A stretch of 64,000 nt of DNA, taken from contig CAVVEC010000002.1 of the NCBI GenBank assembly GCA_963747105.1, positions 219,438 through 283,437 on the forward strand, read 5' to 3'. Shown in pieces: positions 557 to 39,604 of this stretch. The number at the start of each line of letters is the position of its first letter. Position 1 is the first letter of the stretch. Below the pieces are notes generated by a model, which saw only the letters and a program-made list of their open reading frames with translations, was not told where the DNA came from and did not search any database. This DNA comes from an uncultured Acidobacteriota bacterium (lineage in GTDB: Bacteria > Acidobacteriota > Terriglobia > Terriglobales > Acidobacteriaceae). The translations under genes were made by a program, and so were the position numbers.

Positions 557-636
557 GTCATCCTCCGCGATTCATCTGACTCTCAATGCCACCCAGGGCT
601 TACGCCCTGGGCTAAGCTCGTTCGCCCCTGCGGGGC
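557..636. repeat. GC-rich intergenic hairpin element starting with GTCATCCT (same 5-prime motif as the other intergenic repeats in this window)
   Basis: GTCATCCT lies at 557-564. A perfect hairpin CCCAGGGC-ttac-GCCCTGGG lies at 592-611. A second hairpin GCCCC-tgc-GGGGC lies at 624-636. The element sits between nuoD and nuoE. Confidence 0.4.
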
Positions 637-703
637 TTGACTTCTGTTCCCTCTGGCAAAACGACTAATGCCTAACGACCAACGACTAACGACCAACGGC
701 GTT

Positions 704-7493: not shown

Positions 7494-8696
7494 ATGAGCC
7501 TGCAATCGCTGGTTCTGTGTTCCGACGAGATGATCATGCGGGTGCTGCGCCGCGTCTTGAGTGATCTTGAGATTAGCGTGGAGCAATGCACCAATGCGGA
7601 TTCTGCGGTCCGCCGGCTGACCCGCCAGAGATTTGAAGCCGTGATCGTGGACTGCAGCGACGAAGACGCCGCCGCCGGCGTGCTCAAGAGTGTCCGCTCG
7701 GCTCCGTGCAACAAACACGCCGTCGCCGTGGCCATTATTGATGGTCAAAAGGCGGTGCGCAGCGCCTTTGCGCTGGGGGCGCATTTCGTCCTCTACAAGC
7801 CCGTGTCTGCGGAACGAGCCCGCACCAGTTTCCGCGCGGCTCGCGCTTTGATGAAGTGCGAACGCCGCCGCAATACGCGGGTCGCCATCGAAATCCCAGT
7901 CCTGCTTAGCCTTGGAAATGGGTCGGGCCAGCAAAAGGCGACCACCTCCGATCTGAGTGAAGGCGGTATGGCTGTTTATCTCGCCCGGCGCGCTCAGAAA
8001 TCCGGTTCCTTTGGGATCAAATTCACTCTGCCTGGGACGGAATGCGTGGTCGAGTGCAAGGGCGAAGTGGCATGGGAGAATGGCGGCTCTCAGATCGGAA
8101 TTCGCTTCGTGGATCTGGCCTCCGAACTCCGTGCTCAGCTCAAAAGCTGGCTGGCGCGGCACTCTCCGGAAATCGAGAAGGAAGATCCGCCGGTTCCCTG
8201 CAGACTGACCGACCTCAGCCTCGGCGGTTGCTATTTGGAGGTGACGACGCCGTTTCCTGCGCATACCCGGGTCGCCCTGACCATGCGGATTGCGGAACTT
8301 CAAGTTCGCGTAGAAGGAGTTGTGCGGGTCATGCACCCGGAGATCGGGATGGGAGTGGAATTCGTCCGGACCACCAGCCAGCAACGCGAGCAGGTGGAAA
8401 AACTGATTCAGGCTCTCATGAACAGCAATGGAGCGTTGCCCGAACTGGTGGTGGAGCCTGAAGGCATGAGTGATCCGCAACCGGCCCAGCCATCTCAGCC
8501 GGTTGCCGACGAAACCGAAGATCCTCTGCTTGACCTCTTCCGGAGAAAGACCGAGTTTACTACCGAAACCTTCCTGAGCGAATTACGCCGCCAACGGGGC
8601 TCCCATCCCAGCCGGCCCAAGCTGCTGTTTCCGCGTAGCGTCGTGTCCCAGACGAGTCGCCCTAGAAGACCTGCCGGGTCAGGTCAAAGCCGATAA
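7494..8696 (+). CDS. Receiver (REC) domain protein with two PilZ domains (c-di-GMP-binding type)
   Basis: The N-terminus is CheY-like (LVLCSDEMIMRVL...AVIVDCSDED...HFVLYKP). The first PilZ carries ERRRNTR...DLSEGGMAV (RxxxR / DxSxxG). The second PilZ-like unit carries CRLTDLSLGGCYLEV. The 3-prime end overlaps the convergent gene by 35 nt, so the exact stop is uncertain. Confidence 0.8.
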   Translation: MSLQSLVLCSDEMIMRVLRRVLSDLEISVEQCTNADSAVRRLTRQRFEAVIVDCSDEDAAAGVLKSVRSAPCNKHAVAVAIIDGQKAVRSAFALGAHFVLYKPVSAERARTSFRAARALMKCERRRNTRVAIEIPVLLSLGNGSGQQKATTSDLSEGGMAVYLARRAQKSGSFGIKFTLPGTECVVECKGEVAWENGGSQIGIRFVDLASELRAQLKSWLARHSPEIEKEDPPVPCRLTDLSLGGCYLEVTTPFPAHTRVALTMRIAELQVRVEGVVRVMHPEIGMGVEFVRTTSQQREQVEKLIQALMNSNGALPELVVEPEGMSDPQPAQPSQPVADETEDPLLDLFRRKTEFTTETFLSELRRQRGSHPSRPKLLFPRSVVSQTSRPRRPAGSGQSR

Positions 8697-9870
8697 ACAT
8701 CTTTTTTGGCGTGTCGCCTGAAGGATCACCCAGGAAGGTCGCGTTCGTGGCAGCCCGTTGCGACACGATCGTAGCCGGATTGTTGCCAAAGCCTAGCGTG
8801 AACGCATGACGCCAAATCTTTTTCTGGATGCCAAAGCCGAACTCAGGACGATGTATGCCTAATTCGCGGCCATTCACCAGGGTGGGCGTGACTTCCGCAA
8901 CCAGCGCGACAGTGGGACGGATGTCTACGGACGCTGCCATGCCCAGAGAAACCGTGTTGGCGCAGGGCTTCAGGATGAGCGACCCCGAAGTTCCGTTCGC
9001 CACAGGAGCGCTGCAAGGCTGGTCAGGAATCGCATCCGCCAGAGTGGGATTGGAATCTTGAAGCAGCGGTCGGGCATGAATGGAAAACGTTGGCACAGCG
9101 TACAACTGCGCGCGTCGGCCGAGGCTGCGAGAGACAATCAGCTCAAAATTCTCCGCGAAATTCCGGCTAAAGTTGTTCTGTCCGTCCACCGAGAAACGGA
9201 CGGCTGCATTTAGAGGATTCCCATCATGCTCATCGAGAAAGTTATAGGCTGCCATCAGCTCAATCGGTCGTCCAATGAAGCTCGGCGAACGGTAGGCGAA
9301 CACGGAAAGCCGCGATGTCACTCCGTAACGGAAACCGAATGAGGGAATAGCAAAGTTATCCAAGCCGAGCAACGTGTCGCCACGTCCAGCCGTGGTGAAG
9401 GCGGGCTCAAACGGAAACCGGTGAGTGAAATTGATGTACAGGCCGTGACGCGCCACCCGCCGTCCCGTGGGCACGGTGAAAACGTTATCGTCTCCCGGCT
9501 TGTAGACCGTGTCCTTCTTCTTGGCAGGAGCAGGTTCGGTCGGAGTTTGGGCAGCGCTGGACGCTTGCAGGCTCGAAGCAGTAGCCGTTGATGACTCCGG
9601 AGTCGTTACTTCCCGAATCTGATGCGTGGCCAGGTCTACTACGTAATTCTTCCCGTCGCGCCGCACCATAACCTGGGAGGTCGAGCCTTCGACGAAGGAA
9701 ACGCCCACGTCCGCGGGTGTAACCGCGCCCTCTGCCCCCTGCGGCGACGATGATGAAGTCGGCTTCGTCGCGTCCGCAAGAGTAACCTGTGAAAGCGCGA
9801 GCGTGCCCAACGTGAGGATACCGGTAAACACAACTGATGCGACTCTATTCCGCATGCTCTCTTGGCTCAT
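8662..9870 (-). CDS. Putative outer-membrane beta-barrel protein
   Basis: A signal peptide (VVFTGILTLGTLALSQVTLADA) is followed by a Ser/Thr/Ala/Pro-rich linker, alternating amphipathic strands and a C-terminal ...GFDLTRQVF ending in Phe, as in OMPs. Confidence 0.65.
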   Translation of the reverse strand: MSQESMRNRVASVVFTGILTLGTLALSQVTLADATKPTSSSSPQGAEGAVTPADVGVSFVEGSTSQVMVRRDGKNYVVDLATHQIREVTTPESSTATASSLQASSAAQTPTEPAPAKKKDTVYKPGDDNVFTVPTGRRVARHGLYINFTHRFPFEPAFTTAGRGDTLLGLDNFAIPSFGFRYGVTSRLSVFAYRSPSFIGRPIELMAAYNFLDEHDGNPLNAAVRFSVDGQNNFSRNFAENFELIVSRSLGRRAQLYAVPTFSIHARPLLQDSNPTLADAIPDQPCSAPVANGTSGSLILKPCANTVSLGMAASVDIRPTVALVAEVTPTLVNGRELGIHRPEFGFGIQKKIWRHAFTLGFGNNPATIVSQRAATNATFLGDPSGDTPKKMFIGFDLTRQVF

Positions 9871-10082
9871 GTTTTCCCTCTTAGAATTGCTGTGTGTCTT
9901 TCCTGCCAGCTAGCTGAACAGCAGGAGCCCCAAGCTCAACCCAATCAGAGTCAGCGACCATCCTAAAGCCAAGTCCAACGGGGTCATCTCTGACGCCTCG
10001 GAGCACTGACCGTTGCTGGCTCAATGGAAAATAATTACAATCGCAGCATAGATGCGCGGGTGCGAAGTTGGTGTCATACAAA

Positions 10083-10110
10083 TGTCAACACTCTGTCACT
10101 TCTCTGTCGA
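10083..10110 (-). promoter_or_regulatory. Array of three hexamers phased at 11 bp, reading TCGACA/GTGACA/TTGACA toward the minus-strand gene that starts at 9870
   Basis: On the plus strand TGTCAA lies at 10083, TGTCAC at 10094 and TGTCGA at 10105, spaced exactly 11 and 11 bp. Confidence 0.6.
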
Positions 10111-10141
10111 AAGTGATTGATTCGATGTTGTCTCCCGGAAC

Positions 10142-10168
10142 TTGCAATCTGTTGACAACTCCGTGACA
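10142..10168 (+). promoter_or_regulatory. Array of phased hexamers TTGCAA/TTGACA/GTGACA reading toward the plus-strand gene at 10237
   Basis: TTGCAA lies at 10142, TTGACA at 10152 and GTGACA at 10163 (spacing 10 and 11 bp). It mirrors the array at 10083-10110. Confidence 0.55.
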
Positions 10169-10236
10169 AATGCCCGGCGCATCTTTTCTATTTTGAATTC
10201 TGCTACGGAGTCAACCTTTAATAACGGAGACATGAG

Positions 10237-10602
10237 ATGAAAACTTGCTTCGGTCGCATTCTACTCCTGCTTTCGACCACCTTGCTGGCTTTGCCACTTT
10301 GGGCTGGACAAAGTGACCCGCAGGTTTTCACCGGTGAAGTCATGGACTCGCTCTGCGCAAAGAACGGATCGCACGACGAGATGATGGACGAAATGAAAAG
10401 CATGGGGCGCGACAAGGCGTCCTGCAGTCAGAAGTGTATTCAGCTCGGTGCAAAGTACGTCCTGTATGACGCGGCCAAGAAGACGGTTTACAACCTCGAC
10501 GACCCGGACAAGGTTGAATCATTCGCCGGCCGGAAGGTCCGCGTCTCTGGAACCCTCGAAAAGAATAAGATCAAGATCGCGAGCGTCCAGGCCGCAGACT
10601 AG
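10237..10602 (+). CDS. Small secreted Cys-containing protein (possibly DUF5818-like)
   Basis: A signal peptide (MKTCFGRILLLLSTTLLALPLWAGQ) is followed by a 96-aa mature part with three Cys and a ...GRKVRVSGTLEKNKIKIASV tail. The family assignment is tentative. Confidence 0.6.
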   Translation: MKTCFGRILLLLSTTLLALPLWAGQSDPQVFTGEVMDSLCAKNGSHDEMMDEMKSMGRDKASCSQKCIQLGAKYVLYDAAKKTVYNLDDPDKVESFAGRKVRVSGTLEKNKIKIASVQAAD

Positions 10603-13581: not shown

Positions 13582-14995
13582 CTAGGCCTCAACCTCAACG
13601 GCACTTGCGCGTAGACCCGCGCGAGCATCCTTGATATCGCGTTGCAGAGATGCGATAGCGGAGACATCGGCATCCACGTTGTGTTGCAGCCTCTCGAGCT
13701 CCACCTCGCTGCGCAGCAACGCATCGGCGAACCCGTAGAATCGCCGCGAATGCCGGCCACGAATACGGGCTTCTCTATCGGAGCCGATGTCCCACGGTTT
13801 GAAGGTGTCAACCCGCTGCGCCACTTCTGAGAAGTAGGGCGTCCCTTTGATGGGATAAGCAACCGTGGTGAAGAAGATATCGGGATCGGTTTTTTTGACA
13901 TGCTCCACGGTGGCCTCGATATCGGAAAGTTCCTCACCTTCGTAGCCCCACATCAGAAACATTCCGATCTGAATTCCGTTCGAGCGGCACGTAGTTACCG
14001 AATTTTGCACTTGCTCTACGGTCACTCCCCGTTCCATGGCGTCCAGAATTCTTTGCGATCCGCTCTCAGACCCAATCCAAACACGGGAACAGCCTATCTC
14101 AGCCAGTGTTTCCGCAACTTGAGGGTTCAGCCGGTCGGCGCGCGAAATGCACTCAAAGGGAAACTTGATCTTGCGGCGCTTGAGTTCCGCAGCATACTGA
14201 AAGAGCCAACCATGGTGAATGGTGAATACGTCGTCGGCCATCCACGCCATTTCGGGCTGATAACGGTTGATCAACCATTCAAGTTCGTCGGCTACAGAGA
14301 CAGGCTTCCTGCGCCTATGGGTTTTCCCGAAGACATCGTGGCTGCACCAGCGGCAATGGTAAGGACAACCGCGGGCAGTGATGAGGGAAACAGAGCCCAT
14401 GCCGTGGTGCTCACGCCAAACCGCAACATACCGCGCCACATCGATGGATTCCCGGGCAGGCCACGGCTGCGCATCAATGTCCCTGATTTGCTCGCGCGGT
14501 TTTGTCCGGATCACCGATCCGTCCGGCCCGCGGAAGGCAATGCCGTCAATTTGCTGCAGTGTTTCGAAATGATTGCGACTTTAGCGCCGGCACCAATTCT
14601 TCCAGGGTAACTTCACCCTCGCCGATGACAACTACATCTGCTCCGGCTGCGAGGTACTCGTGAATATAGGCGCCCGGCTCCGGCCCACCGACAATCGTCT
14701 GCCAGCCCGCCTCCTTGGCGACGCGGAGAATTTCGACTGCATTGGGCCGTGTCATCAAATTCGCATACACGCCGACCACGGATGGCGGGCTTTGTCGGAG
14801 CAGGTCCCATAAGGCCTGACGCGACGAAAATGTTGAATCGAACACCTCGACATTCAGACCCTTCTTTCGCAAATGGGAGCAGATATAAAGGATTCCCAAC
14901 GGAGGGTAGGGCTTCATGATCTGGAGCTCCTTGGGATCCTCGTAAAGGAAATATCCGTGCGTGAGAAGAATATCCATAGTCCCGCGATTCCGCAT
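13582..14995 (-). CDS. B12-binding-domain radical SAM protein; single frame change near 14575
   Basis: The N-terminal fragment (14546-14995) reads MDILLTHGYFLYEDPKELQIMKPYPPLGILYICSHLRKKGLNVEVFD...VVIGEGEVTLEELV. The C-terminal fragment (13582-14514) contains ITARGCPYHCRWCSH and WIGSESGSQRILDAMERG. The junction sequence NHFETLQQIDGIAFRGPDGSVIRTKP is visible in the second frame. It is a paralog of the 15005-16519 product. Confidence 0.85.
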
Positions 14996-15004: not shown

Positions 15005-16519
15005 CTAATCGTCACCGCTTGTCATGCCAGGGCCCGCGCGCAGCTGCACCAATGGCTCGCAGGCAAAACCAGGCAGAACTGTGGGACGCGCATTGCGGCA
15101 AGTCTTTTCCAGTCGTACCACCTGCTCCCACAGTTCATCCGGCTTGGGACGCCCTGGACTCGCGCCTTCTTGGCTAGTCGATGAATTCCAAAGATCCACT
15201 TGCGAATGCAGAGCGTCGTGCAAGGCATGATAAAACTCGTCGGTATAGGCGCCCTGAAACATCATTGCCAGATCCTCGCTGTCGGACCAATTAGTCTTTT
15301 CGCCCAACTGCGCATGCACCTGGTTGAAGAATTTGGTTCCAGGAAGAGGGTACGACACCGACACTCCAATGTCGTCCGGACGGGTATCGCGCACCAGTTG
15401 GGCGGTCTTCTGAATGTCCTCCCATGTCTCGCCCGGATATCCAAACTGCAAAAAATAACACGCCCGGATGCCCTGGCTCCGCAAGTTCTCCCTCGCCTTG
15501 GTGATCTGCTCGACCCGAGTGCCTTTGTCCATTGCATCCAGAATCTTTTGTGATCCCGACTCGGCACCCATCCAAACTTCCGCGCAACCTGCACGACGCA
15601 GGGCACCTACATTGTTGGCGGTCATCAGGTCCACCCGGGACTGCATCTTGAAGGGCACGGCAGCATCCGCCCTCTCGACTTCCGTGGCGAATTCGCGGAC
15701 CCAATTTGCGTGAAGCCCAAAGATGTCATCGGCAAACCAGAGATGCTCAGCGCCCAAATCGTACTTCAAACGGCGCATCTCTTCCGCCACACTCCAGGGC
15801 GACCGAACGGCAAACGAATCACCGTAAATGGGCTTGGCGCACCAGTTGCAACGAAACGGACAGCCGCGGCTGGAAACAATATTCATGGAAAAGTATCCGT
15901 GCGCAGCTTTCCAGGCGGCACGATATTCGTCGGCATCAATCAGGTCGCGAGCCGGGAATGGCAACAGATCAAGGTCTCGTATCAGAGGACGAGGGGCTGT
16001 CCGCATCAGTTCCCCGGTTTCCTCATCCAAGTACGACAATCCGGCAATAGCCGTGAATTGCCTGTCATCACCTTTCAAGAGCTGCCGAATCAATTCCAAC
16101 AATGTCCATTCCGCTTCCCCCAATAAGACGCAGCGGCAGCCCTTCCTTAGGTATTCGAGGGTGTGATCCGAAGCATCGGAGCCATTGACCAGGACTATTG
16201 CTCCTGCCCGCTGTGAGGATTCCAGAATGTGGTAGGCCACTTCTCGCATTCGGGTCAGGCACATCTTGGAAAGGAAGTTGAAGCTGTCCTCGTACACTAC
16301 TACGACACGTGGGCGATGCTGCTCAAGCGCAGCCTGGAATCCTTGCTCCGGATTGTTGAGCATGGTGTCAAAAACAGCGACCGAAATACCCACGCTTCGA
16401 AGGAGGGCTGCAGCATAAAGCGTACCGAGCGGCGGGTAAGGCTGCATCTTCCGCGTTTGCTTGCGGTCGTAATACACGTGATAGGAGTGAGTCAGCAGAA
16501 CGTCAGCCACGTTAGTCAT
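15005..16519 (-). CDS. B12-binding-domain radical SAM protein (class B-like)
   Basis: VLLTHSYHVYYDRKQTRKMQPYPPLGTLYAAALLRSVGISVAVFD is a Rossmann-like cobalamin-domain N-terminus. It also has VSSRGCPFRCNWCAK (CxxxCxxC), WMGAESGSQKILDAMDKG and an intact 504-aa ORF. Confidence 0.9.
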   Translation of the reverse strand: MTNVADVLLTHSYHVYYDRKQTRKMQPYPPLGTLYAAALLRSVGISVAVFDTMLNNPEQGFQAALEQHRPRVVVVYEDSFNFLSKMCLTRMREVAYHILESSQRAGAIVLVNGSDASDHTLEYLRKGCRCVLLGEAEWTLLELIRQLLKGDDRQFTAIAGLSYLDEETGELMRTAPRPLIRDLDLLPFPARDLIDADEYRAAWKAAHGYFSMNIVSSRGCPFRCNWCAKPIYGDSFAVRSPWSVAEEMRRLKYDLGAEHLWFADDIFGLHANWVREFATEVERADAAVPFKMQSRVDLMTANNVGALRRAGCAEVWMGAESGSQKILDAMDKGTRVEQITKARENLRSQGIRACYFLQFGYPGETWEDIQKTAQLVRDTRPDDIGVSVSYPLPGTKFFNQVHAQLGEKTNWSDSEDLAMMFQGAYTDEFYHALHDALHSQVDLWNSSTSQEGASPGRPKPDELWEQVVRLEKTCRNARPTVLPGFACEPLVQLRAGPGMTSGDD

Positions 16520-16759
16520 GCCTCGTCAAGCTTGGAACAGAAACCATCAGCAAACTTCGTGTGCGCGTTCGGCGAGGGCCCGGCACGACTTTGCGCTTCG
16601 CGGTCACTTTGCCTGCTGCACTACAAAAAAACTAGGAGCGCGCGACTCCCGCATCATTCTAAGTTGAGACAACGTCCTACGCGGCAGACCCCCACTCATT
16701 TTGCGCGCGCTGTTATGCAAAACGTATACCAGATTCTGGTGCTGACGTTCTAGACCAGT

Positions 16760-16787
16760 TGTCAACAGCTTGTCAAATTCCTGTCAA
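16760..16787 (-). promoter_or_regulatory. Three perfect TTGACA hexamers (plus strand TGTCAA) phased at exactly 11 bp, reading toward the minus-strand radical SAM operon (start 16519)
   Basis: TGTCAA lies at 16760, 16771 and 16782 in the 453-bp divergent intergenic region. Confidence 0.65.
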
Positions 16788-16832
16788 GTTTTGCTGTGCT
16801 GCCGCTCTTTGATGTTGGTCTGGTTTCGGAAT

Positions 16833-16860
16833 TTTACACAATGGTTACAATTCGGAGACA
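16833..16860 (+). promoter_or_regulatory. Three hexamers TTTACA/GTTACA/GAGACA phased at exactly 11 bp, reading toward the plus-strand radical SAM operon (start 16972)
   Basis: The hexamers lie at 16833, 16844 and 16855. The array mirrors the 16760-16787 array in the same intergenic region. Confidence 0.6.
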
Positions 16861-16971
16861 ATTCACCAATGTTGCCGCTGGTACTTTTCAGTTCTCGCGA
16901 CTAAAATCTGGCGATTGGGGATGCGTCGCCGTCTCGCAGTCTGAATTCTAGATCAGGATCGGGAGTATGAC

Positions 16972-18483
16972 ATGAGGTCATCGAAGAAAATCGTTTTTTT
17001 TGTCGCCTCATTTTCCAGTATCGAGGCTACCGCTCCCCTGGGTATCCTCGCCATTTCCACCCCGCTGTTACGTGCTGGCTATGATGTTCGCATCATCGAT
17101 TCCACGATTTTCCCTGACTACAAGAAGCGGGTGTTGTACGAAGTACAGGACGCTCTTTGCCTGGGCATTTCCGTTGTGACCGGACCCATGATCCGCGAGA
17201 CCGTGGAGGTAGCCAAAGCGGTCAAAAAATGGGATCCAGAGTTCCCCGTGATTCTTGGAGGCTGGCACCCGTCCCTTCTCCCCCAGCAAACCCTGGAAGC
17301 CGGCTACGTAGACATCATTGTTCGCGCCCAAGGCGAGGAGAGCATGCTCGAGGTTGCCGAGCGCCTTCGGGACGACGCCCCCCTAGACGACGTTCTCGGC
17401 ATCGGGTTCAAGCGTGACCGCAAGCTTCACCTCACTCCCGAACGTCCTCTCAAGACGCTCGATAAAATGCCTGCGAAGGCATATGAACTAGCCGATTTTG
17501 ATGGCTATGAGAAGGTGTGCGGCCGCCGCTGGGCGATGTATGTTTCCAGTCTGGCCTGCCCGTTCAATTGTTTCTACTGCACCAATGCCGGGGTCTACGG
17601 TCGCAAATGGAATGCACTGCCGGTCGAGCAAGTCGTGGAAGAGACCATGGAGTTGACACGGCGCTATAACCTCGAACTGCTCTGGATGGCCGACGACAAC
17701 TTTCTCGTGGATCTGAAACGCGCGCTGGAAATCGCGGAAGGACTCGTGCGTGCGAAGGCCACCTTTAAGTGGAGTGTCCAGGCCACCACGAACCTGACTG
17801 CCCGCCTTAGCATCGAGGAATTGTCGCTGCTCAAGAGATCGGGGCTGCACCAAATCTGTCAGGGGATCGAGACAGCGTCTCCCACTGTGATGAAATTAAT
17901 GAATAAGGACTTCCAGATCCTGGGGGACATTTATGAGTCTACTGAACGCTGCATCAAGGCGGGCGTCATCCCTTCTTTCAACATAATTTTTGGCTACCCC
18001 GGAGAAGGCGCGAAGGAACGGCGCGAAACCGTCAACTTCATGATGGACGTTTGCCGTCGTTTCCCGGGAGCTGAATTCTGGACCAACATCTTCACACCTT
18101 ACCCGGGTTCTCCTATTTTTCACCAGGCGGAAAAGCTCGGGATTGAGGTTCCCAACTCGCTCGAAGGCTGGGTGGATTATTTCCCGCGCTACACCGTGCT
18201 GCCCTGGCTGAAAGGCCGGGATCATCAGCGGGTACAAACTATGCGGGATTATCTCCGAATCGCCTTTGATCGGGCTCCCATCGCGTTGAAAGGCCCTGGC
18301 ACGCTGGCCAAAGCAGTTCAGCATTTGACCGCCTATCCGGCGCGCTGGAGATTGGATCACGACTTTTACAATTTTCCCGTCGAGCTGTGGTTGAACCGGA
18401 CATTGAAGAACATCGTCAAGCTTCCCAAGCCCAGCGTAGACGCCAAGATGATGGGACCGGAACAGGCTCCGAGTTGCACCTAA
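16972..18483 (+). CDS. B12-binding-domain radical SAM protein (second subfamily)
   Basis: IVFFVASFSSIEATAPLGILAISTPLLRAGYDVRIIDST, VSSLACPFNCFYCTN and QGIETASPTVMKLMNKD, in an intact 503-aa ORF with a GGGAG Shine-Dalgarno. Confidence 0.9.
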   Translation: MRSSKKIVFFVASFSSIEATAPLGILAISTPLLRAGYDVRIIDSTIFPDYKKRVLYEVQDALCLGISVVTGPMIRETVEVAKAVKKWDPEFPVILGGWHPSLLPQQTLEAGYVDIIVRAQGEESMLEVAERLRDDAPLDDVLGIGFKRDRKLHLTPERPLKTLDKMPAKAYELADFDGYEKVCGRRWAMYVSSLACPFNCFYCTNAGVYGRKWNALPVEQVVEETMELTRRYNLELLWMADDNFLVDLKRALEIAEGLVRAKATFKWSVQATTNLTARLSIEELSLLKRSGLHQICQGIETASPTVMKLMNKDFQILGDIYESTERCIKAGVIPSFNIIFGYPGEGAKERRETVNFMMDVCRRFPGAEFWTNIFTPYPGSPIFHQAEKLGIEVPNSLEGWVDYFPRYTVLPWLKGRDHQRVQTMRDYLRIAFDRAPIALKGPGTLAKAVQHLTAYPARWRLDHDFYNFPVELWLNRTLKNIVKLPKPSVDAKMMGPEQAPSCT

Positions 18484-24027: not shown

Positions 24028-25302
24028 TTACCCGCACCGCCCTGGTTGTAAAACAAGCGGCGGCTGGGGCGGCTGGGTAAAATCGAAGCTGTCCAGCATG
24101 TTGCTCGCCGCTGAATCTCGGGGGGTTAGCGGCGGCAGACCGTAGCGCGTCTCTACGAACTTCAAGATCGACGAATGTTCGTAGATGGTATGCGAAATGT
24201 ACCCCGGTTTCGAATAGGGAGAAATGATCAATAGCGGTACGCGAGGGCCCAGTCCGAATTGGTCGATTTGTGGCGGTGGAACGTGGTCATAGAGTCCCCC
24301 GAAGTCGTCCCAAGTAATGAAGACTACAGTGGAATTCCAAGCCGGTCCCTGCATGACCGCGTTTAGAACCTGAACTGTCCAATTCTGACCGTCGCAGGGA
24401 CTTTCCGGAGGATGCTCATCGTCGGCTTCGGGTGCGAAAAGCCAGTTCATCGCTGCCAGCTTTCCATTTTCAGCATCGGTGACAAATTGTGTACCCGGTG
24501 CGAAATTCTTCGTCCACGCAGGGCCATTGCGGATATGTTTGATCGTGCTGAATGTGTTGGGCCCATCACCGTAATATTTCCAACCAATGCCTGCCTGCCC
24601 GAGACTGTCGGCCAAAGTCTTAAAGTCGAAGCAGGGCGACTGAATAGTTCGGTTGCCCTTAGAATCGATCACCGTCACAACTTCTGCCGGACTCCCGTCA
24701 CAAGCCACGCCGGACCCAAAGTGCGAACCATCGTCGATCACGCCGCCAGATTGGGCGGCAATAATATAAAAGTAGTTCGGAAGACTTGGTCCGTGGACCG
24801 ACGTGAAGTATCGATCAGCCAGAACGAAGCGATGTGCATAAGCCCAGTAGCTGGGAATGTCTTGCTCGTCCAGTTGGGTATATGCGTTCAAGGTTCCAGC
24901 ATCAATGAGGTCAAACTTGTTCATTCCCCCCCCATCCATAGCCTCGATGGCGCAATCCCAACCATTGCAAAGGTTGTCGAGTTGAGACGGATTGCCCAGG
25001 TGAGTAAGCGGTACGACTTGCCCAGTTGAGACTTTGCCAGTGGTCGCACCGTCCGCGCCAGGGAACGTACCGAAGTAATGGTCGAAGGTACGATTCTCTT
25101 TCACAACGAAGACCACATGCTGGACAACCCGAAGATCCCTTGGTCCCTGATTGCATGCCCCGACTGTAGCCATAAGAGTGCTCAGCCCCAGGGACATGGC
25201 CACTCTCTTCTTCCACTCCGTCGCTTGCCTCATCCTTCTTAACCACCTTATTGAGGTCGCAGACCCAAAACCTGATGCGAGCCGATTGTTGTCGTAGATC
25301 AA
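24028..25302 (-). CDS. Phosphoesterase-family protein (non-haemolytic phospholipase C / AcpA acid phosphatase family), probable lipoprotein
   Basis: [23 protein letters not shown] is the hallmark N-terminal motif of this family. The likely start is [27 protein letters not shown] (lipobox-like) at about 25233. Confidence 0.8.
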
Positions 25303-30389: not shown

Positions 30390-31394
30390 TCACGACGGAC
30401 ATTCCAACCGATCAAAATAATGCGACAGTTGTTCGGCGATGATCTGCGGCGCTCCGCCGTACTCGAGACGCCAGCAGGGGAGTCCGGCGAGTTCATCGAT
30501 CGTCCTTGCCTGCTCCGCGGCTGCTTCGGGAAGCTCTGCCATCATGTCTGCCTCAAGCCGACGAGCGGCTTCGCTTCTCGGCACATGGTTGAGGCAGAAG
30601 CCACGAGCCTTCCGCTGATCGAGAAAAACAACCAATCGGGGCTCGCACTCGCGAACCCGTTGAACACCAAACTGCAGGTCCGCTTCGTATCGAAAAACGG
30701 ATTCGCCCTTCCACATGTCGGTCGGCGACTGCTGCCGGAGCTCTTGAAACCATGTCGCGGCGTCAGACCGCAGTTTGAGCAACAAGGGCAGTCCCCACGC
30801 GACCAGCTTACCTTGGCGCAGTGAGCAAAAAGTACGGTCGTCCGAAAGAAATCCAAAGCCGACTTGGCCGAGGGCCAAGGACAGGGTTGATTTTCCCGAG
30901 CCTGACGGTCCCGCCAAGAGGAGACCACCTTGATTTCTGGCCACGCAGGCGCAGTGTATCTCCGCGATGCCGAGAGAGCCGCTAACAATGGAGACAATCA
31001 TGGGCAGGATGACTTCCCTCCAATAGGCACGATCCCCACTGATTTGCGGTGAAAATCGACCGATAACACGCCGAGTACGAAGATCGATGAGCGCTGAACT
31101 ATCAGCCTCAAAACCGGCAAAGACAAGATGGTCCAAGCCCCGAACATAGGGCTTTGGCCTCGGCGCCTGGCCGGCGGCGCTTGCGTCTACCCACAACCTA
31201 ATGCGCAGTTCGGTCGGAATTCCCGGACCTTCGTTCCGAACAAAACTCTCACGGGCCGCCGCGAGAATGGATTCGGAATTGGTGCTGATTTCGCACCCTC
31301 TACCGCCCACAAGAAACAATTCATGAAGCGGCGTCTGCGCCTCCTTGCGCAAGAAGTCGCCAGAACAGGTCCCGGGACTGGCAGTTCTGCTCAA
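30390..31394 (-). CDS. HPr-kinase C-terminal-domain-like P-loop protein (HprK-related kinase)
   Basis: SLGIAEIHCACVARNQGGLLLAGPSGSGKSTLSLALGQVGFGFLSDDRTF shows the H-x-(A/S)-x-V...G-x-SG-x-GKST...SDD arrangement typical of the HprK catalytic domain. It has a TTG start. Confidence 0.7.
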   Translation of the reverse strand: MSRTASPGTCSGDFLRKEAQTPLHELFLVGGRGCEISTNSESILAAARESFVRNEGPGIPTELRIRLWVDASAAGQAPRPKPYVRGLDHLVFAGFEADSSALIDLRTRRVIGRFSPQISGDRAYWREVILPMIVSIVSGSLGIAEIHCACVARNQGGLLLAGPSGSGKSTLSLALGQVGFGFLSDDRTFCSLRQGKLVAWGLPLLLKLRSDAATWFQELRQQSPTDMWKGESVFRYEADLQFGVQRVRECEPRLVVFLDQRKARGFCLNHVPRSEAARRLEADMMAELPEAAAEQARTIDELAGLPCWRLEYGGAPQIIAEQLSHYFDRLECPS

Positions 31395-31484: not shown

Positions 31485-31512
31485 CGTCACCAAATTCGTA
31501 ACACATTGTAAC
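31485..31512 (-). promoter_or_regulatory. Three hexamers GTTACA/GTTACG/GTGACG (minus-strand reading) with 10- and 12-bp spacing, upstream of the HprK-like/GT-C operon
   Basis: On the plus strand CGTCAC lies at 31485, CGTAAC at 31497 and TGTAAC at 31507. The site is about 90 nt upstream of the 31394 start. This array is less regular than the others. Confidence 0.4.
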
Positions 31513-31620
31513 AAGACGCCGCGGATGACATTGTTCGGGCTCTGGTTCACGTTCCGCTGAATCCCTGCTTGACCCAGCTTTACGCAGTCCAGAGCCCGAA
31601 TTTTTACGCACCAGCGATCG

Positions 31621-32636
31621 CTACTTAAAGTTGATCACTCCGAACAAGCCGTCCGCGTAGCCGTTCGGACCCGCGGTGAAGAACAGCTGATTGGGGTTGC
31701 CGTTCGAGCCGCCGCCTTGACCAAACGCCAGTCCCCAAAGCCCGCTAATGCTGATCACTTTCTTGTTGGTGCCTTTGAGCTGGGTCATGAATTTTCCGGT
31801 CTTGGCGTTGAACGCATTAATCTTGCCATCGCCCAGGTTCCCCACCAGCACGGCATTGCTGGCCGGACCAAAGTTCTTGGGTGCGAGCGCCAACCCCCAG
31901 GGTGCTTTGAGATGGCTATCCTTGGTGAGCGTCTTAATGAAGTTACCCGCCGTGTCGAAGATGTCCACAGCGCCCTTGGTGAAAGAGCCGTCGACAAAGG
32001 CTACGTACAACTGGCCGTTAAGGTTCTGAACGTTATAGACGGAGTAGCCGGAAAGGTTGCTGTCGGTGAAAGAACCCGCGGCGTTGAACTTTCCGTCATA
32101 GATCTCGACTTTATTGGCGGCGTTGTTCGCCGCATAAATGAAGTTAGCCCCGTTGGACTGACCGATCGCCAAGCCGGTGTACGAAGCGCCGTTGCCTGAA
32201 TTATCGATGGCAATCGCAGCGCTCGATCCCAAGAACGAGCTCCAGCCGCTGATGGTGCCGTCCAGACCGTCGAACAGGAAGGTAGAAGCCCAGCCCTTGA
32301 CCACAAAATCCTGGCTGCTGTTGTAGACCTGCCCGGTTGGGGTTCCTTGTTTGCCGCCGGCGCCTGGGATCGTGACTGTTCCCACCAGCACACCCTTGCC
32401 GCTGTAAAACGTGGAGAGGCCGGTTCCCTCGTCACTGATCCAGATCGGTCCGCCCGAGGCGAAAGACATTCCCCAGGCATTCTTAGGTTGGGGTCCTGAT
32501 GTTTCGCCTTGCCTGACTGGTCCGACACAAGGTTGGTTATTTTGTACTGAGCCGCAGCTGGGGCAATCAACCCCAGCACGACCACGAGGGAAGCGAGGAA
32601 AACGAGCGTGCGACTCGAACGCGGTTGAAACACCAT
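31621..32636 (-). CDS. Secreted beta-propeller protein, TIGR03118-like; 1-nt deletion near 32485
   Basis: The signal peptide and N-terminus (MVFQPRSSRTLVFLASLVVVLGLIAPAAAQYKITNLVSDQSGKAKHQDPNL) lie in one frame. The remainder lies in the next frame: KNAWGMSFASGGPIWISDEGTGLSTFY...LWGLAFGQGGGSNGNPNQLFFTAGPNGYADGLFGVINFK. Confidence 0.75.
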
Positions 32637-32771
32637 GATTCTTCTCCTTAAAGTTTTCTGAAATTAATGGGAGTGGCTGACGCGGCGTCATGCAGAACTC
32701 GAGTCGGATTCAAACGAGATCATCCACCCACGCCGAATCAGTGGCATTGTCGAGGTTCCACCCCACCCATA

Positions 32772-32799
32772 TGTCAAGAACATGTCTCCGAATTGTAAA
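32772..32799 (-). promoter_or_regulatory. Three hexamers TTTACA/GAGACA/TTGACA (minus-strand reading) phased at exactly 11 bp, upstream of the TIGR03118-like gene
   Basis: On the plus strand TGTCAA lies at 32772, TGTCTC at 32783 and TGTAAA at 32794. The site is about 135 nt upstream of the ATG at 32636. Confidence 0.55.
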
Positions 32800-33259: not shown

Positions 33260-34443
33260 TTGAGAGTGTGTTTCGGGGCCGCAAGTGTCGGGCTAACGCT
33301 AACGGTCGGGCTTGTGCTAGGGGCGCTGGCAATCCAATCAGGGCAGGCACAGACATTCGCTATACTTCACACCTTTTGCCCCAAGATCGGCTGCAGCGAC
33401 GGGTCGTTCCCCTACGCGGGTTTAATCCGGGACAGAGCCGGGAATCTCTACGGCACCACCAAGGAGGGCGGCTCTTCCGATTTCGGAACGGTGTTCGAGG
33501 TGGACACGAGTGGCACAGAGACCGTGCTCTACAGCTTCACCGGGGGAAACGACGGCGGATATCCTTACGCAAGCTTGATCCGGGACCCCGCGGGGAATCT
33601 TTATGGCACCACTGAGGCGGGCGGCTCTTCCGCAGTAGGAACGGTTTTCAAGCTGGATACCAGCGGCACGGAAACGGTACTGCACAGCTTCCCCTATGGG
33701 CCAACGGATGGGTGCTACCCCTACGCAGGGTTGATCCGGAGACGGCCGGGAATCTCTACGGCAGTACCGCGGAATGCGGCTCTTCCGACGCAGGGACAGT
33801 GTTCAAGCTCGATGCGAGCGGCATCGAGACCGTGTTGCACAGCTTCACCGGATACCCAACGGACGGGGCGTATCCCTACCTCGGCAGTTTGCTCTTGGAC
33901 AAGAAGGACAATCTCTACGGCGTCACGCAATACGGGGGCGCGTCCGATGTAGGAGTCGTGTACAGACTGAGCAAGAGTGGGAAATTGACCGTACTGCACA
34001 GCTTTACCGGGGGAACCACGGACGGGTGTATTCCTACGGAACCCCGGCCATGGACGAGAAGGGCGCTCTCTACGGTACTACCGTGTCGTGCGGTTCCTCC
34101 AACGACGGAATCGTGTGGAAGGTGAGCAAGAAAGGCACGGAGACCGTGCTGTACAACTTTGGGGCGGCGTCGTACCGGGGCCACTTCCTATGCAGGTGTG
34201 ATTATGGATGCGAAGGGTAATCTCTACGGCGACACCACTGCGGGCGGCGCGTCCAATGATGGAACGGTATACAAACTTAATAACAGAGGCGAGCTAACCC
34301 TGTTGCACAGCTTCACCGGGTACCCAACGGACGGGGCCCAGCCCATCGGAGGCTTGAACCGTGACGCGAAGGGCAGCCTCTTTGGCACTACGGTCGGCGG
34401 TGGCGGCAATGGCTACGGGACGGTGTGGAAGCTGACACCGTAA
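33260..34443 (+). pseudogene. Secreted tandem-repeat protein (GloVer-type repeat: ...LYSFTGG.DG..P...LI.D..GNLYGTT..GG....GTVFKL...G.ETVLHSF); at least three to four frame changes
   Basis: A signal peptide (MRVCFGAASVGLTLTVGLVLGALAIQSGQAQ) is followed by about 7 repeats of roughly 50 aa. These are spread over four overlapping ORFs (33260-33952, 33712-34125, 33774-34220, 34159-34443) that join colinearly. Confidence 0.8.
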
Positions 34444-34474
34444 TTGCCATAGCGGAAGCAGTGAATGGGTTGGA

Positions 34475-34563
34475 TGGTGCCCGGGACCGGAATCGAACCG
34501 GTACGGAGCTTTCGCCCCTCGGGATTTTAAGTCCCGTGCGTCTGCCAGTTTCGCCACCCGGGC
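34475..34563 (-). tRNA. tRNA-Leu (anticodon UAA), CCA encoded
   Basis: The reverse complement is GCCCGGGTGGCGAAACTGGCAGACGCACGGGACTTAAAATCCCGAGGGGCGAAAGCTCCGTACCGGTTCGATTCCGGTCCCGGGCACCA. It folds with a 7-bp acceptor stem, anticodon stem CGGGA/TCCCG with loop CTTAAAA, a long variable arm and a GGTTCGATTCC T-loop. Confidence 0.95.
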
Positions 34564-34751
34564 GCGAACCAATCAAGTATAGGTCATGCCACAGCTTTCT
34601 TAACGGCAGACGCAGCCAGCCGCGAATTCGTCAGTCCGCTGACAATGTCGCGCACTGGATCGCTATCGTGCCCCAGCGGGCTCAACTGAAGCCAGGCGTT
34701 CAAGTGCGCCAAATCACTCAATCAGCAAGCAGCACCAGCATTTGTCGGGCC

Positions 34752-36627
34752 CTACCTGCCACCGGGCCCCATGCCATCCAGAGCTTGCTTGGCGAAGACG
34801 AGCGCCGGATCCAACTGCAAGGCCTGCTCATAGGCGGCGCGCGCTTCCGCCAAGTTGCCAATCTCCTGCAGAAGAATCGCATACTGGGTGTAGTGCGGTG
34901 CAGTGGGCTGATCGTGGACAAAGACAGCGAGCCGCTGACTGATCTCCGCGCTCAGGCGCGGTTCGATTTGCAACGCCTGCCGATAACTCTCGCGTACCTT
35001 CGCAAAGTCCTCAAGGTTCGCGTACACGGTGGCCAGGCTTTCGTAAATGCGCGCTTGTATTTGAGGATCCTTGGTGGTCTGAAGGGCGACTGCAAACTCT
35101 CCGGCGGCATCCTGCTGCCGTCCAAGCATGGCGTAGGCGGTGGCCAGCCGGACGTGGTTCATCGGATCACCGAAATTTTGCGCCGCAGCTCTCTGCAGAC
35201 CGGGCAGCGCTTCCTCGGGACGATTCAGCATGAGCAGAGCCAGATAATTGTCTTGGGTAACCTCAGCCGCGTGCGACCAGAGTTCATCATTGTTGCGCCA
35301 ATAACGGAGTTGCCGCCAAGTCAGGTAAGGCAAGATGACCACAATCAACAGCCCGGCGACGGCCACGCGCAGATCAATACCGATATTCATGGCGTCAGCC
35401 AGATCAGAGGCAGCCCATATCACCATCACGAAGATTCCAATCAGCGGAAGGTAGGCATAGCGGTCGGCCATGGCTTGGTTGCCGACCTGCACCAGACCAA
35501 TCATGGGCACCAGAGTGCCGAGGTACCAAAGCCAGCCAGTTACTAGATAACGCTGCGAGGTTCGGCGTCTCCACACCAGGAAACTCACTGCCCCAAGAAA
35601 AACCGCCGCCAGCCCCACTCGCCCCGGCCCCAGAGAGTTTCCCGGATGCGGGTAATAGATCGCAAACCCCGCAGGCCAGAATGTTTTCCATACATACATC
35701 GCGTAGGCATAAACCGCATTCTCCAACCGGACGCCGAAAGAAAAACTTCCCTGTATGGAGGCGCCCGCCCGCTGGGCAATCATAGTGATCACCGCACTGG
35801 CAGCGGAGAGCGCGAATAATGGAAGCTTTTCCGTGACTAGCCAGGAGAATGAAGCGCGGGAAAACTTCTCGGATGGCCCGTCCTCGTTCCTGGATGTCGG
35901 TGTGGCCGCCAGGGAACGCGGTTTGCCCCGTCCCTGGATTCTCTCCAACGGCCAGAAATCCAGAAGCAGAAGAACAAAAGGCAGCGTAATCACCATCGGC
36001 TTGGCCGCGAGGCCCAGGGCGAACATTAGCGCCACGACAAGATAACGGCGAATGCTGGGCTTCCGCGAATACAAGCCGTAGGCGCCGAGGGCCAACAGGA
36101 AAAACAACATGCTGAGAACATTCTTGCGCTCCGCGATCCAGGCCACGGATTCGACATTAAAGGGATGGAGAGCAAACAGCGTCGCAAGCAGAAAACTTCG
36201 CCCCATCCGGCCCGTCGCCCACGCCGCTACCAGGAAGAGCAGCAGAACATTGATTACATGGATGAGGACACTGGTTAAGTGATGACCGGCGGGTTCGAGT
36301 CCGTAGAGTTGGCAATCCAGAGCGTGAGACAGCCACGTCAAGGGATGCCAGTTAGCTTGCTCAATGGATGTAAAGGCCCAGCGGAAGGCTTTGCCAGGTT
36401 AGCCCCACCTGCACATGCGCGTTGCCGGTGACATATTCATGATCGTCGAGGGTGGCAAAGGGATGGCTCGTGACCGAGCTGTAGATGGCAAAGGTCTCGA
36501 CCGCGAGAAACAGGCAAGTACCCAGGAGATACGCGCGTTTCCGACCCATCGGCGAGCCGATTGTAACAGCCGGTTCGCAGTGCCACAAGCCGGTGTACTC
36601 GTCCAGTAGATCGGTGACAGTTTTCAT
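34752..36627 (-). CDS. Polytopic membrane protein (GT-C / TMTC-like, DUF1736-type) with C-terminal TPR repeats; frame change near 36385
   Basis: The N-terminal fragment ...MGRKRAYLLGTCLFLAVETFAIYSSV...DDHEYVTGNAHVQVGLTW continues in the next frame as AFRWAFTSIEQANWHPLTWLSHALDCQLYG...FALHPFNVESVAWIAERKN. The C-terminal ~200 aa are TPR-like (ALLMLNRPEEALPGLQRAAAQN...AYEQALQLDPALV). Confidence 0.75.
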
Positions 36628-38010: not shown

Positions 38011-38397
38011 AAGATCCCCGTTACCAATCAATCCTGACAGGGCACTCTGAAACTAAGTCTTAATGATGGCTGTTGCCGCCCTACGGATCAACTCTTTTTT
38101 TGAACCGTGCTACCCGTCCGGGCTGCGCAGCAGTCCGGCTGCCTTGCTGGCGTGGGTGCCACCGGGACGGTGTCCCGTTCAGGATAACCCAGCCCCCTGC
38201 GCCCCCTTTCGGTCTTTCGCCAGATCGCTAAAGAGGGACCCGCACTTCTGCTATCTCGAATACAATTTCTTGACATCATCCCTCTCGCATTTTGCGGGGA
38301 AAACCTATATCCTTATCTGCAATCAAAGCAGCAACTATTTCACAGCAGCACAATGAGCATCGCGTGGGGGGCGCATGCGAAGTTCTAGAGGTCAGTT

Positions 38398-39066
38398 ATG
38401 TCTAATGGTGTTGAAACCGTTCAGGTTTTCATCTTGGCCGAAAATCGGCTTTTGCGCGAAGCCCTTACGCGCATTCTCAGCAAAAAGAGCGACATTCGCG
38501 TGGTTGGAGCGGCTGCGTTTTCTCCAGGCGTGGTGCAGGAAATTCGTGCTACCGCACCGGATGTGCTGCTCTCTGATTCGGCTGCGGTGGCTCTGTCAGA
38601 GTTGCAACTGGTTTCCGAGGTTCGTTCCGCCCTCCTTGGCCTCAAAGTGGTCATGATCGGTATGGACGCCGACCGGGAAACCTTCCTGCGCGCCGTGCGG
38701 GACGGGGTCGCGGGTTATGTGCTGAAGGACGCCTCCGCCATTGAGGTAGCATCTGCAGTTCGCTCCGTGGCCAACGGCGAAGCCGTATGTCCACCGAGCC
38801 TGTGCCTGACCTTATTTGAGCAAGTGTCGAAGCAGGTTACGCCCCCGGCAAGTTTCGTTATCCGGCACAACCTCGGCCTCACTCGCAGAGAACAGCAATT
38901 GGTGCAAATGATTGGCCGCGGGCTCACCAACAAAGAGATCGCAGCCCAATTGAATCTCTCAGAGCAGACCATCAAGAATCACATTCATCGGATGTTGCGC
39001 AAGCTCGGTGCCAACGACCGGCTTGGCGCGGTCGAACTCTGCCGCATGCCGGGAGCTGTCGCGTGA
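38398..39066 (+). CDS. NarL/LuxR-family response regulator with degenerate acidic pocket
   Basis: The receiver reads VFILAENRLLREAL (EN instead of DD)...PDVLLSDS...GYVLKD. The C-terminal LuxR HTH reads LTRREQQLVQMIGRGLTNKEIAAQLNLSEQTIKNHIHRMLRKLG. Confidence 0.85.
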   Translation: MSNGVETVQVFILAENRLLREALTRILSKKSDIRVVGAAAFSPGVVQEIRATAPDVLLSDSAAVALSELQLVSEVRSALLGLKVVMIGMDADRETFLRAVRDGVAGYVLKDASAIEVASAVRSVANGEAVCPPSLCLTLFEQVSKQVTPPASFVIRHNLGLTRREQQLVQMIGRGLTNKEIAAQLNLSEQTIKNHIHRMLRKLGANDRLGAVELCRMPGAVA

Positions 39067-39232
39067 TTCGGCACAGCGCCGTTATTCAGGCAGTACTTTT
39101 TGGGTACTGATCCCTAGAGATCCAGCCAGATTTTGGTGGTTTAGCAGATCCCATTGGTACTTCTGTCCAAATCGCATTTGAATCTTACTTTTTTCTCGAG
39201 GACAAGAGACACTGCATGGCACGGAGAGGATC

Positions 39233-39604
39233 GTGCAAAAAATCAGAGTGTTAGTTGCCAACCGACCGCGACTCATGAAGGATCTGGTCCTCGCCACCAT
39301 CGGGGATCAGCCTGATATCGAAGTCGTCGGCGAGACCCAGGACGAGGCTGAAATCACGGAACTGGTGGAACGCACACGTCCAGATTACCTGATCATCGCG
39401 TTGCAGGAACCGGAAGTCCGGCCTGGACTGAGCGGATTTTTGCTGGGCCGGTACCCGCAAATGAAGATTCTTGCCCTTGCCGCGGAACGCAATAGCGGCG
39501 TTTTTTATTGGGCCTTTGTTGATATTCGCTCCCAGCGTGTGGAATCTTCCGAGCAAGGCATCCTCAGTGTGTTGCGGAATAAGCCGGAACTGGTGGGGAT
39601 TTAG
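39233..39604 (+). CDS. Stand-alone pseudo-receiver domain protein (no phospho-acceptor Asp)
   Basis: IRVLVANRPRLMKDLV...PDYLIIALQEP has Ala at the expected Asp position. The product is 123 aa with a GTG start. Confidence 0.65.
   Translation: MQKIRVLVANRPRLMKDLVLATIGDQPDIEVVGETQDEAEITELVERTRPDYLIIALQEPEVRPGLSGFLLGRYPQMKILALAAERNSGVFYWAFVDIRSQRVESSEQGILSVLRNKPELVGI

Follow-up and report, generated by a model that had tools for sequence, protein, structure and literature searches.

The window analysed here, a 64,000-nt stretch of DNA from an uncultured acidobacterium, raises the question of what controls two divergent B12-radical SAM genes, and through which sites in the DNA. The genes, 15005-16519 on the minus strand and 16972-18483 on the plus strand, both encode B12-binding and radical SAM domains according to Pfam and are separated by a 452-bp intergenic region (16520-16971). 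This region contains TGTCAA at 16760-16765, 16771-16776 and 16782-16787, which reads as TTGACA three times on the minus strand, and also TTTACA (16833-16838), GTTACA (16844-16849) and GAGACA (16855-16860). The period is exactly 11 bp within each of the two arrays, as the initial annotation had noted for the hexamers beginning at 16760, 16771 and 16782 and at 16833, 16844 and 16855. Tandem direct repeats with an 11-bp period are a hallmark of winged-helix response regulators, and the initial annotation had proposed an OmpR/PhoB-family regulator, with phosphate-starvation control as one hypothesis. Acidobacteria are among the most abundant bacteria in soil, and to our knowledge little is known of how their genes are controlled.

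Phased arrays in the window

The phased arrays in the 64-kb window are far beyond chance. The pattern TTGACA-N5-TTGACA, with up to two mismatches, matched the window 13 times, compared with 3.9 +/- 2.1 times in shuffled sequences, and none of 100 shuffles reached 13. When the trinucleotide ACA was required in at least three phased units, we found four cases at a period of 11 bp, one at 6 and none at 7-10 or 12-17; in 300 shuffles, the period of 11 bp gave a mean of 0.19 and a maximum of 2. A three-unit weight-matrix scan, with its threshold set at the median of the shuffle maxima, gave 10 matches at the 11-bp period and 0-1 at the control periods.

Five arrays are spread over three intergenic regions of the window, each aimed at the adjacent gene. 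They are listed below with their predicted -10 elements, together with one weak and one decayed site.

16760-16787, minus strand: array TTGACA-N5-TTGACA-N5-TTGACA, toward the radical SAM operon 15005-16519; 31.6 bits
16733-16738, minus strand: predicted -10 CAGAAT, 21 nt downstream of the nearest TTGACA
16833-16860, plus strand: array TTTACA-N5-GTTACA-N5-GAGACA, toward the radical SAM operon 16972-18483; 23.8 bits
16879-16887, plus strand: predicted extended -10 TGgTACTTT, with the hexamer at 16882-16887, 21 nt past GAGACA
10072-10110, minus strand: four-unit array TCGACA-GTGACA-TTGACA-ATGACA, toward the DUF5777 beta-barrel gene 8662-9870
10045-10050, minus strand: predicted -10 TATGCT of the 10072 array
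10141-10168, plus strand: array CTTGCA-N5-TTGACA-N5-GTGACA, toward the secreted DUF5818-like gene 10237-10602; 24.5 bits
10189-10194, plus strand: predicted -10 TATTTT of the 10141 array
32772-32799, minus strand: array TTTACA-N5-GAGACA-N5-TTGACA, toward the TIGR03118-family gene 31621-32691; 23.8 bits
32746-32751, minus strand: predicted -10 GACAAT of the 32772 array
38259-38275, plus strand: weak two-unit site AATACA-N5-TTGACA, upstream of the NarL/LuxR-type regulator gene 38398-39066; 11.4 bits, sub-threshold
31495-31525 (approximate), minus strand: decayed array GTTACA-4-GTTACG-6-GTGACG, upstream of the HprK-related kinase gene 30390-31394

The array at 16760 has the top weight-matrix score in the window. 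The minus operon would be transcribed from near 16726, and CAGAAT or CACAAT occurs at an equal offset in two related loci (L001 and L003). The predicted start of the plus operon lies near 16894, and a TTGnTAnnTT block is kept across species at the offset of the plus-promoter -10. For the other three arrays the predicted starts are near 10201 (plus strand), 10038 and 32739 (both minus strand). The arrays at 10072 and 10141 make up a second mirror-image control region in the window; the four units of the former are identical in L001, and arrays orthologous to the latter were found in L001, L050 and L065. The TIGR03118-family gene heads a long minus-strand operon, and its array at 32772 has orthologous arrays in L005, L007 and L061. 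The 16-mer TTACAATTCGGAGACA is common to the arrays at 32772 and 16833. The NarL/LuxR-type regulator gene 38398-39066, downstream of the weak site, is a possible member of the regulon. As for the HprK-related kinase gene with its decayed array, a clean TTTACA-TTGACA-GTGACA array was found at this gene in 40 other species.

The arrays at 16760 and 16833 had been described as mirror images of each other. Two phased arrays are indeed present, but they do not form a single composite structure: because the gap separating the mirrored arrays is 41, 45, 56 or 82 bp among species, the mirror image consists of two independent divergent promoters. A riboswitch in the leader of the minus operon was also considered, and was dropped because Rfam returned no match for the intergenic region 16520-16971 at the gathering threshold, and none at E-values up to 1, and because the leader (about 207 nt) folds no better than shuffled sequence (z = +1.9).

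Conservation and promoter geometry

To follow the arrays beyond the window we used 80 loci from as many species-level genomes of the class Terriglobia (Acidobacteriota), which had been retrieved with the plus-strand radical SAM protein at 79 to 96% protein identity. Strict ACA-phased arrays in these loci (1.52 Mb) numbered 151 at a period of 11 bp and 3-10 at periods of 9, 10, 12 and 13 bp. When the array score was defined as a single-unit weight matrix summed over three units, with a cut-off of 18 bits, the window and the 80 loci together (81 genomes, 1.59 Mb) gave 254 arrays at 11 bp and 0-2 at 9, 10, 12 and 13 bp. Because many of the counted arrays are orthologous copies, the independent cases are fewer than these totals imply. 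Neither the period specificity nor the occurrence in several unrelated promoter classes depends on the counting of orthologues.

The unit consensus is (T/G)T(G/T)ACA(a), followed by a 5-nt spacer. Unit positions that had not been used in the selection are conserved too: position 2 is T in 86%, position 3 is G or T in 92% and position 7 is A in 62%. In most of the 80 species the plus radical SAM promoter carries gATTTTGCA-N5-TTGACA-N5-GAGACAaa, with TTTGCA/TTTACA-N5-TTGACA/TTAACA-N5-GAGACA as the variants among species, and in ten species with mirrored arrays the hexamers and the -10 are invariant and the spacers have diverged. Phasing and conservation are direct observations, and by this comparative evidence the phased hexamers are real, conserved DNA sites.

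The position of the arrays relative to the putative promoters is also fixed, as was observed directly. A -10-like hexamer, defined by A at position 2 and T at position 6, begins 20-21 nt past the gene-proximal hexamer in 226 of 251 distinct arrays, compared with about 26 at control offsets. The 20-nt spacer from array to -10 is GC-rich and unconserved. The sequence 16-18 nt ahead of the predicted -10 is ACAAnn, which offers no usable -35. A fourth unit between array and -10 was looked for in the general profile and was not found, and four-unit arrays do exist at the DUF5777 promoters. Taking an operator of this kind as two or more head-to-tail units, each with a core of 5-7 bp, at 10-11 bp, the arrays consist of three or four units at 11 bp. 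Because the array stands at a fixed 20-21 nt before the -10 and no usable -35 is present, the arrays are most likely operators of activator-dependent promoters, covering the -35 region of promoters whose -10 elements are predicted.

Two other readings of the same geometry have to be weighed. If the arrays were instead repressor operators, the bound regulator would block RNA polymerase; the sites do overlap the -35 region, where binding can occlude the polymerase, and repression is known from multi-repeat sites of ArcA and MtrA (PMC4173790, PMC5650626). With ACAAnn and no -35-like hexamer 16-18 nt from the -10, however, the promoters look too weak to work unaided, and a rigid spacing of 20-21 nt in unrelated promoter classes is typical of contact between an activator and polymerase, which makes repression quite unlikely; from this geometry we infer activation. 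It is harder still to credit that no dedicated direct-repeat protein is involved and that the hexamers are tandem -35 elements for the housekeeping sigma factor, or parts of a MerR-type promoter with an over-long spacer. TTGACA is the sigma-70 -35 consensus, and a consensus scan pairs TTTACA (16833) with GACAAT at 18-nt spacing, but this pair was rejected as unconserved in other species, most of which have GAGACAAA, without the final T. The hexamer nearest to the conserved -10 is 20-21 nt away, not 16-18, and sigma binding needs no three phased copies with conserved identities of their own. The MerR-type mechanism was rejected because the spacer is unconserved, and no conserved palindrome was found in it. 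Taken together, we regard this last reading as extremely improbable, and return to the arrays as activator operators.

The regulon and its candidate regulator

Membership of the regulon was observed directly from the genes that lie downstream of the arrays. B12-radical SAM paralogues are the targets of 177 arrays in 79 loci, the HprK-related kinase gene is a target in 40 loci, and a UpxY-type antiterminator preceding a polysaccharide export and assembly cluster is one in 8 loci. Further recurring targets are TIGR03118 proteins, DUF5818 proteins, a di-haem cytochrome c, a NarL-type regulator and DUF5777 barrels, the last often fused to cytochrome c; most of the recurring target families are also encoded in the 64-kb window. 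In other clades the arrays precede genes for a multicopper oxidase, a cupredoxin, a ferritin-like protein and a glycosyltransferase. The radical SAM, methyltransferase, HprK-like and NTP_transf_5 genes themselves are present in 58-80 of the 80 loci. NCBIfam assigned no specific function to any of the radical SAM proteins, all scores being far below cut-off, and we found no literature on DUF5777 or on the combination of HprK-related, NTP_transf_5 and radical SAM genes.

The initial annotation had stated that no OmpR-family regulator is encoded in the window, and this agrees with our searches for an OmpR-type DNA-binding domain there, by tblastn with an E. coli PhoB query and by Pfam scans, both of which were empty. 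Such a regulator was found in related loci. Four of the 80 loci encode a 225-aa OmpR-family regulator and a 583-aa kinase, back-to-back with a DUF5777/cytochrome c gene; in these four, a four-unit array lies in the gap between the regulator gene and the DUF5777 gene, and a second array lies past the kinase gene. Counting all radical SAM-anchored loci with the pair within 10 kb gives only five of the 80, four with both genes and one with a partial kinase at the locus edge. A database search extended the regulator group to more than 120 sequence clusters at 71-100% identity, and long contigs provided six further contexts, in which the regulator and a HAMP-domain kinase are again back-to-back with DUF5777. 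As in the four loci, a second array lies past the kinase gene. The surrounding genes in these six contexts are B12-radical SAM genes, with a varying set of GT87, HprK-like, NTP_transf_5, Bac_transf, Wzz and Wzy genes.

In all 10 contexts, orthologues of the regulator and kinase (72-100% identity) lie inside the same gene cluster, and in 9 of the 10 the regulator-DUF5777 gap holds an array; the exception is L083, in which an inserted base makes one spacing 12. The co-location of regulator and arrays, which is thus a direct observation, was also seen in a metagenome scan by generic OmpR-family peptide patterns, in which most of the 80 loci recovered were unrelated regulators and served as a negative control. 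Of the 12 homologues with at least 53% identity, 8 have an array in the 600 nt that precede the regulator gene, compared with 1 of the 28 less similar ones (cut-off 16.5 bits; control periods gave none). The arrays of L094 and L095 are directed into the regulator gene itself, and their orientation suggests that the regulator is autoregulated. L058 and L065 also have an OmpR-type gene, with 55% identity to the cluster regulator. It was set aside as a candidate: its neighbours are an ECF sigma factor and a PAS kinase, and the array scans reported no array near it.

The nearest characterised relatives of the regulator are MtrA and RegX3. MtrA comes first in NCBIfam and among solved structures, and RegX3 is the second-best solved relative. 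The regulator nevertheless scores 214 on the MtrA model against a cut-off of 300, and 142 on the ArcA model against 334; on three PhoB models it scores 209 against 296 (TIGR02154), 162 against 270 and 153 against 471. The kinase scores 127 on MtrB against 450, and 111 on PhoR against 334. Because the regulator falls below every equivalog cut-off, it is not MtrA, PhoB or ArcA.

These data bear on two other proposals for the protein that binds the arrays. One is that they are Pho boxes bound by a PhoB/PhoP orthologue under phosphate starvation, with the cluster serving phosphate-sparing remodelling of the envelope. In sequence the unit is similar to the TT(A/T/C)ACA repeat of B. subtilis PhoP and to E. 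coli CTGTCAT read on the opposite strand, and one related locus has a sulfatase/phosphodiesterase gene. RegX3, the second-best structural match, is the mycobacterial phosphate regulator. The PLC/AcpA-type phosphoesterase on which the initial annotation had based its suggestion is also where it was said to be, as a PF04185 gene at 24028-25302 within the minus operon. However, it occurs in 1 of the 80 loci, against 58-80 for the core genes, and a tblastn search with E. coli PstS across the related loci around the cluster (1.5 Mb) gave no homologue. The PhoB and PhoR scores given above, the location of the regulator pair inside the cluster in 10 of 10 contexts and not beside pst/phoU, and the targets in other clades (copper and redox proteins and a glycosyltransferase) all point elsewhere. 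A phosphate-starvation response of the arrays is not supported, and we consider the Pho reading very unlikely. The other proposal, which we hold to be unlikely, is that the arrays are bound not by an OmpR-type protein but by the NarL/LuxR-type response regulator of the window (38398-39066). No other regulator of the window combines a receiver with a DNA-binding domain, and in L002, L004 and L030 an orthologue is encoded close to the cluster. Arrays stand in front of the gene in L030 (22.1 bits) and L004 (18.3 bits), as does the weak site in the window, which would fit autoregulation. An upstream array is explained equally well if the gene is just one more target, acting in a cascade that leads to the UpxY antiterminator and the polysaccharide cluster. 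Inverted repeats are the typical binding sites of NarL/LuxR helix-turn-helix dimers, whereas the sites here are strictly head-to-tail at 11 bp, the winged-helix signature; we found no NarL/FixJ-type inverted heptamer pairs, the units being co-oriented with no conserved dyad symmetry. In addition, seven loci retrieved around the OmpR-type pair (L081-L087) have no orthologue of the NarL-type regulator within 10 kb, yet carry arrays with equal period and promoter spacing. A SARP operator, which has heptamer repeats at 11 bp, was rejected as well, there being no Trans_reg_C or BTAD domain in the scanned ORFs of the window, and the regulator associated with the arrays having a receiver domain instead.

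Of the original assignment to an OmpR/PhoB-family site, the architecture has held, with conservation in 80 species, a fixed distance to the -10 and a regulator pair beside arrays in other genomes; the connection with phosphate has not. On the sequence comparisons made here, we consider it probable that the arrays are activator operators for an MtrA-like OmpR/PhoB-family regulator, which would drive the radical SAM and envelope gene cluster.

Proposed mechanism and comparison with known systems

Under this model, three, sometimes four, head-to-tail units 11 bp apart would occupy roughly -64 to -28, over the usual place of the -35, and an ordinary or extended -10 would follow the last hexamer by 20-21 nt. 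A phosphorylated OmpR/PhoB-family regulator would occupy the units along one face of the helix, with a head-to-tail dimer joined by one or two more protomers, and would recruit RNA polymerase by standing in for the contact between sigma region 4 and the -35. The arrays at 16760 and 16833 would act as back-to-back promoters, each driving one of the divergent B12-radical SAM operons, and the promoters at 10072, 10141 and 32772 would answer to the same regulator. Its targets in other species would include the operon of the HprK-related kinase and nucleotidyltransferase and the UpxY-type antiterminator that heads the polysaccharide cluster. The likely regulator is an MtrA-like protein of about 225 aa that has a HAMP-domain histidine kinase of about 585 aa as its partner; the pair is encoded inside the cluster in many Acidobacteria, and in the present organism would be encoded outside the 64-kb window.

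Redox or oxygen is weakly suggested as the signal by the c-type cytochromes, the copper proteins and the radical SAM enzymes among the targets, and such a signal would suit a regulon with beta-barrel/cytochrome c fusions, copper proteins and di-haem cytochromes. The gene content also hints at an envelope signal. That the arrays define an undescribed two-component regulon of several acidobacterial lineages, serving as an oxygen or redox switch for B12-radical SAM, methyltransferase and envelope glycosyltransferase genes, is a speculative proposal to which we give little credence. Cultured Acidobacteria show oxygen-dependent lipid patterns (PMC10087280), and the array regulon would be the switch behind these patterns if membrane lipids are what the radical SAM enzymes modify, as in the methylation of branched tetraethers.

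The analysis supplies a cis-regulatory motif with its weight matrix, a fixed promoter geometry with predicted starts, a multi-operon regulon across at least 80 species, and a specific candidate regulator and kinase. The cluster contains several B12-radical SAM enzymes whose substrates are uncharacterised, and because the cluster itself is uncharacterised too, knowledge of its regulon is useful: the switch offers a practical route to its function. The arrays are a familiar type of regulatory element, and they define a regulon not described before, in a phylum that has received little study.

Among the known systems of this type, the E. coli Pho box consists of CTGTCAT repeats and the core site of B. 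subtilis PhoP of TT(A/T/C)ACA repeats, both with an 11-bp period. The arrays share with them this period, a TGTCA/TGACA-type core and a site that replaces the -35. They differ in that the array ends 20-21 nt from the -10, compared with about 10 nt in the Pho sites, in having no link to pst/pho genes, and in a regulator that is no PhoB equivalog; the acidobacterial units are also in reverse orientation relative to the repeats of the E. coli Pho box.

The closest likeness in the unit itself is to MtrA. The published MtrA site is (G/T)T(G/A)ACC-N5-GT(G/T)ACN (PMC5650626), and the sites are given as GTnACC-N5-GTnACn in Streptomyces and as GTCACAgcg direct repeats in Mycobacterium (PMC5650626, PMC13189361). 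The 6-5-6 direct repeat and the 11-bp period are the same in both systems, the (G/T)T(G/T)AC core is near-identical to the array unit, and the array units show the 6-5-6 repeat with GTnAC core by which an MtrA box is recognised. In the promoter of S. venezuelae mtrA the site is centred near -34, suggesting autoactivation there, a further resemblance. On the other hand, the cluster regulator and kinase score below the MtrA/MtrB equivalog cut-offs, and three or four units are usual in the acidobacterial arrays, compared with two. No LpqB, as in MtrAB-LpqB, was found among the precomputed Pfam domains of the neighbours in six contexts, where several genes are without a Pfam match. MtrA is also an actinobacterial protein whose regulon concerns cell division and development, whereas the arrays here are acidobacterial and have another regulon.

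S. coelicolor PhoP likewise binds tandem 11-nt units with a conserved core of 6-7 nt, in two, three or more consecutive copies (PMC2275107). It extends cooperatively along the DNA, and deletion of one base in a unit sharply cuts binding (PMC2275107), which is why the strict 11-bp period matters. Its core, GTTCAY, is different from TGACA, and its regulon is that of phosphate scavenging. E. coli ArcA binds three direct repeats with a centre-to-centre distance of 11 bp (PMC4173790), all three of which contribute to binding (PMC4173790), and its cores TGTTA, TGTAA and TGTCA are the reverse complements of the array cores TAACA, TTACA and TGACA. ArcA mainly represses, however, with the icdA repeats covering -12 to +21, unlike the acidobacterial arrays, which are fixed upstream of the -10.

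The mechanism adopted here is taken from M. tuberculosis PhoP, for which cryo-EM revealed head-to-tail dimers, tetramers and hexamers over the -35, replacing the contact of sigma region 4 (PMC11825685). It was solved structurally there and is deduced from geometry here, and the acidobacterial arrays differ in that an odd number of units, three, is the commonest. In every feature testable here, the arrays fit the site of a winged-helix response regulator, as judged from their sequence.

Repeat arrays and a shared 16-mer

Two of the arrays of head-to-tail hexamers, the plus-strand one between the divergent B12-radical SAM operons and that upstream of the TIGR03118-family gene, have an identical 16-mer in common, TTACAATTCGGAGACA, spacer included, at 16845-16860 (+) and 32783-32798 (-), respectively. 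This identity is greater than the unit consensus would demand, and either duplication of a promoter or an extra constraint might be its source. The gene for the HprK-related kinase is preceded by a decayed array, GTTACA-4-GTTACG-6-GTGACG (window about 31495-31525, minus strand), in which the spacings are 10 and 12, not 11, and the cores are ACG; the promoter of the HprK-related kinase has a clean array in 40 other species.

Predicted leader and open reading frames of the radical SAM genes

16634-16650 (-): terminator-like hairpin followed by a T-run, inside the predicted leader (about 207 nt) of the minus radical SAM operon
14546-14995 (-): B12-binding domain ORF, 149 aa
13582-14514 (-): radical SAM core ORF, 310 aa
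11300-11764: additional radical SAM fragment

The minus radical SAM operon could be attenuated through the hairpin and T-run; in folding, the predicted leader did not surpass shuffled sequence (z = +1.9), and Rfam gave no match to it. In the region 13582-14995 (-), the B12-binding domain and the radical SAM core are on separate, adjoining ORFs: the enzyme is naturally split, or else a frameshift has broken the gene.

Signalling and RNA genes

7494-8696 (+): receiver and double PilZ domain protein, directly adjoining the array-controlled DUF5777 gene
38398-40468 (+): row of three genes, the first for a NarL-type response regulator
39233-39604 (+): receiver-only protein, second in the row
39899-40468 (+): UpxY-family antiterminator, third in the row
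592-637 (+): Acido-Lenti-1 small RNA (Rfam, 56.6 bits; gathering score 37)
34478-34563 (-): tRNA gene (Rfam, 58 bits)

The position of the receiver/double-PilZ protein beside the DUF5777 gene makes a link to cyclic-di-GMP signalling possible. Downstream of the row of three genes comes a cluster for polysaccharide export and assembly, about 22 kb long (40592-63154), and the antiterminator gene has an array of its own, ATGACA-TTTACA-GGGACA, in eight other species. The Acido-Lenti-1 match fits an acidobacterial origin. Two long mechanical ORFs, 34425-35546 (+) and 34752-36341 (-), span the region in which the tRNA gene lies, which casts doubt on the left end of their calls.

Arrays in other acidobacterial clades

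Similar arrays adjoin a homologous pair of OmpR-family regulator and histidine kinase in five metagenome loci from other acidobacterial clades (L091, L097, L099, L100 and L101). The genes after these arrays encode a multicopper oxidase, a cupredoxin/COX2-like protein, a family 2 glycosyltransferase and a ferritin-like protein, the last carrying a twin-arginine (TAT) export signal. These products give a hint that the regulon may centre on redox or metals.
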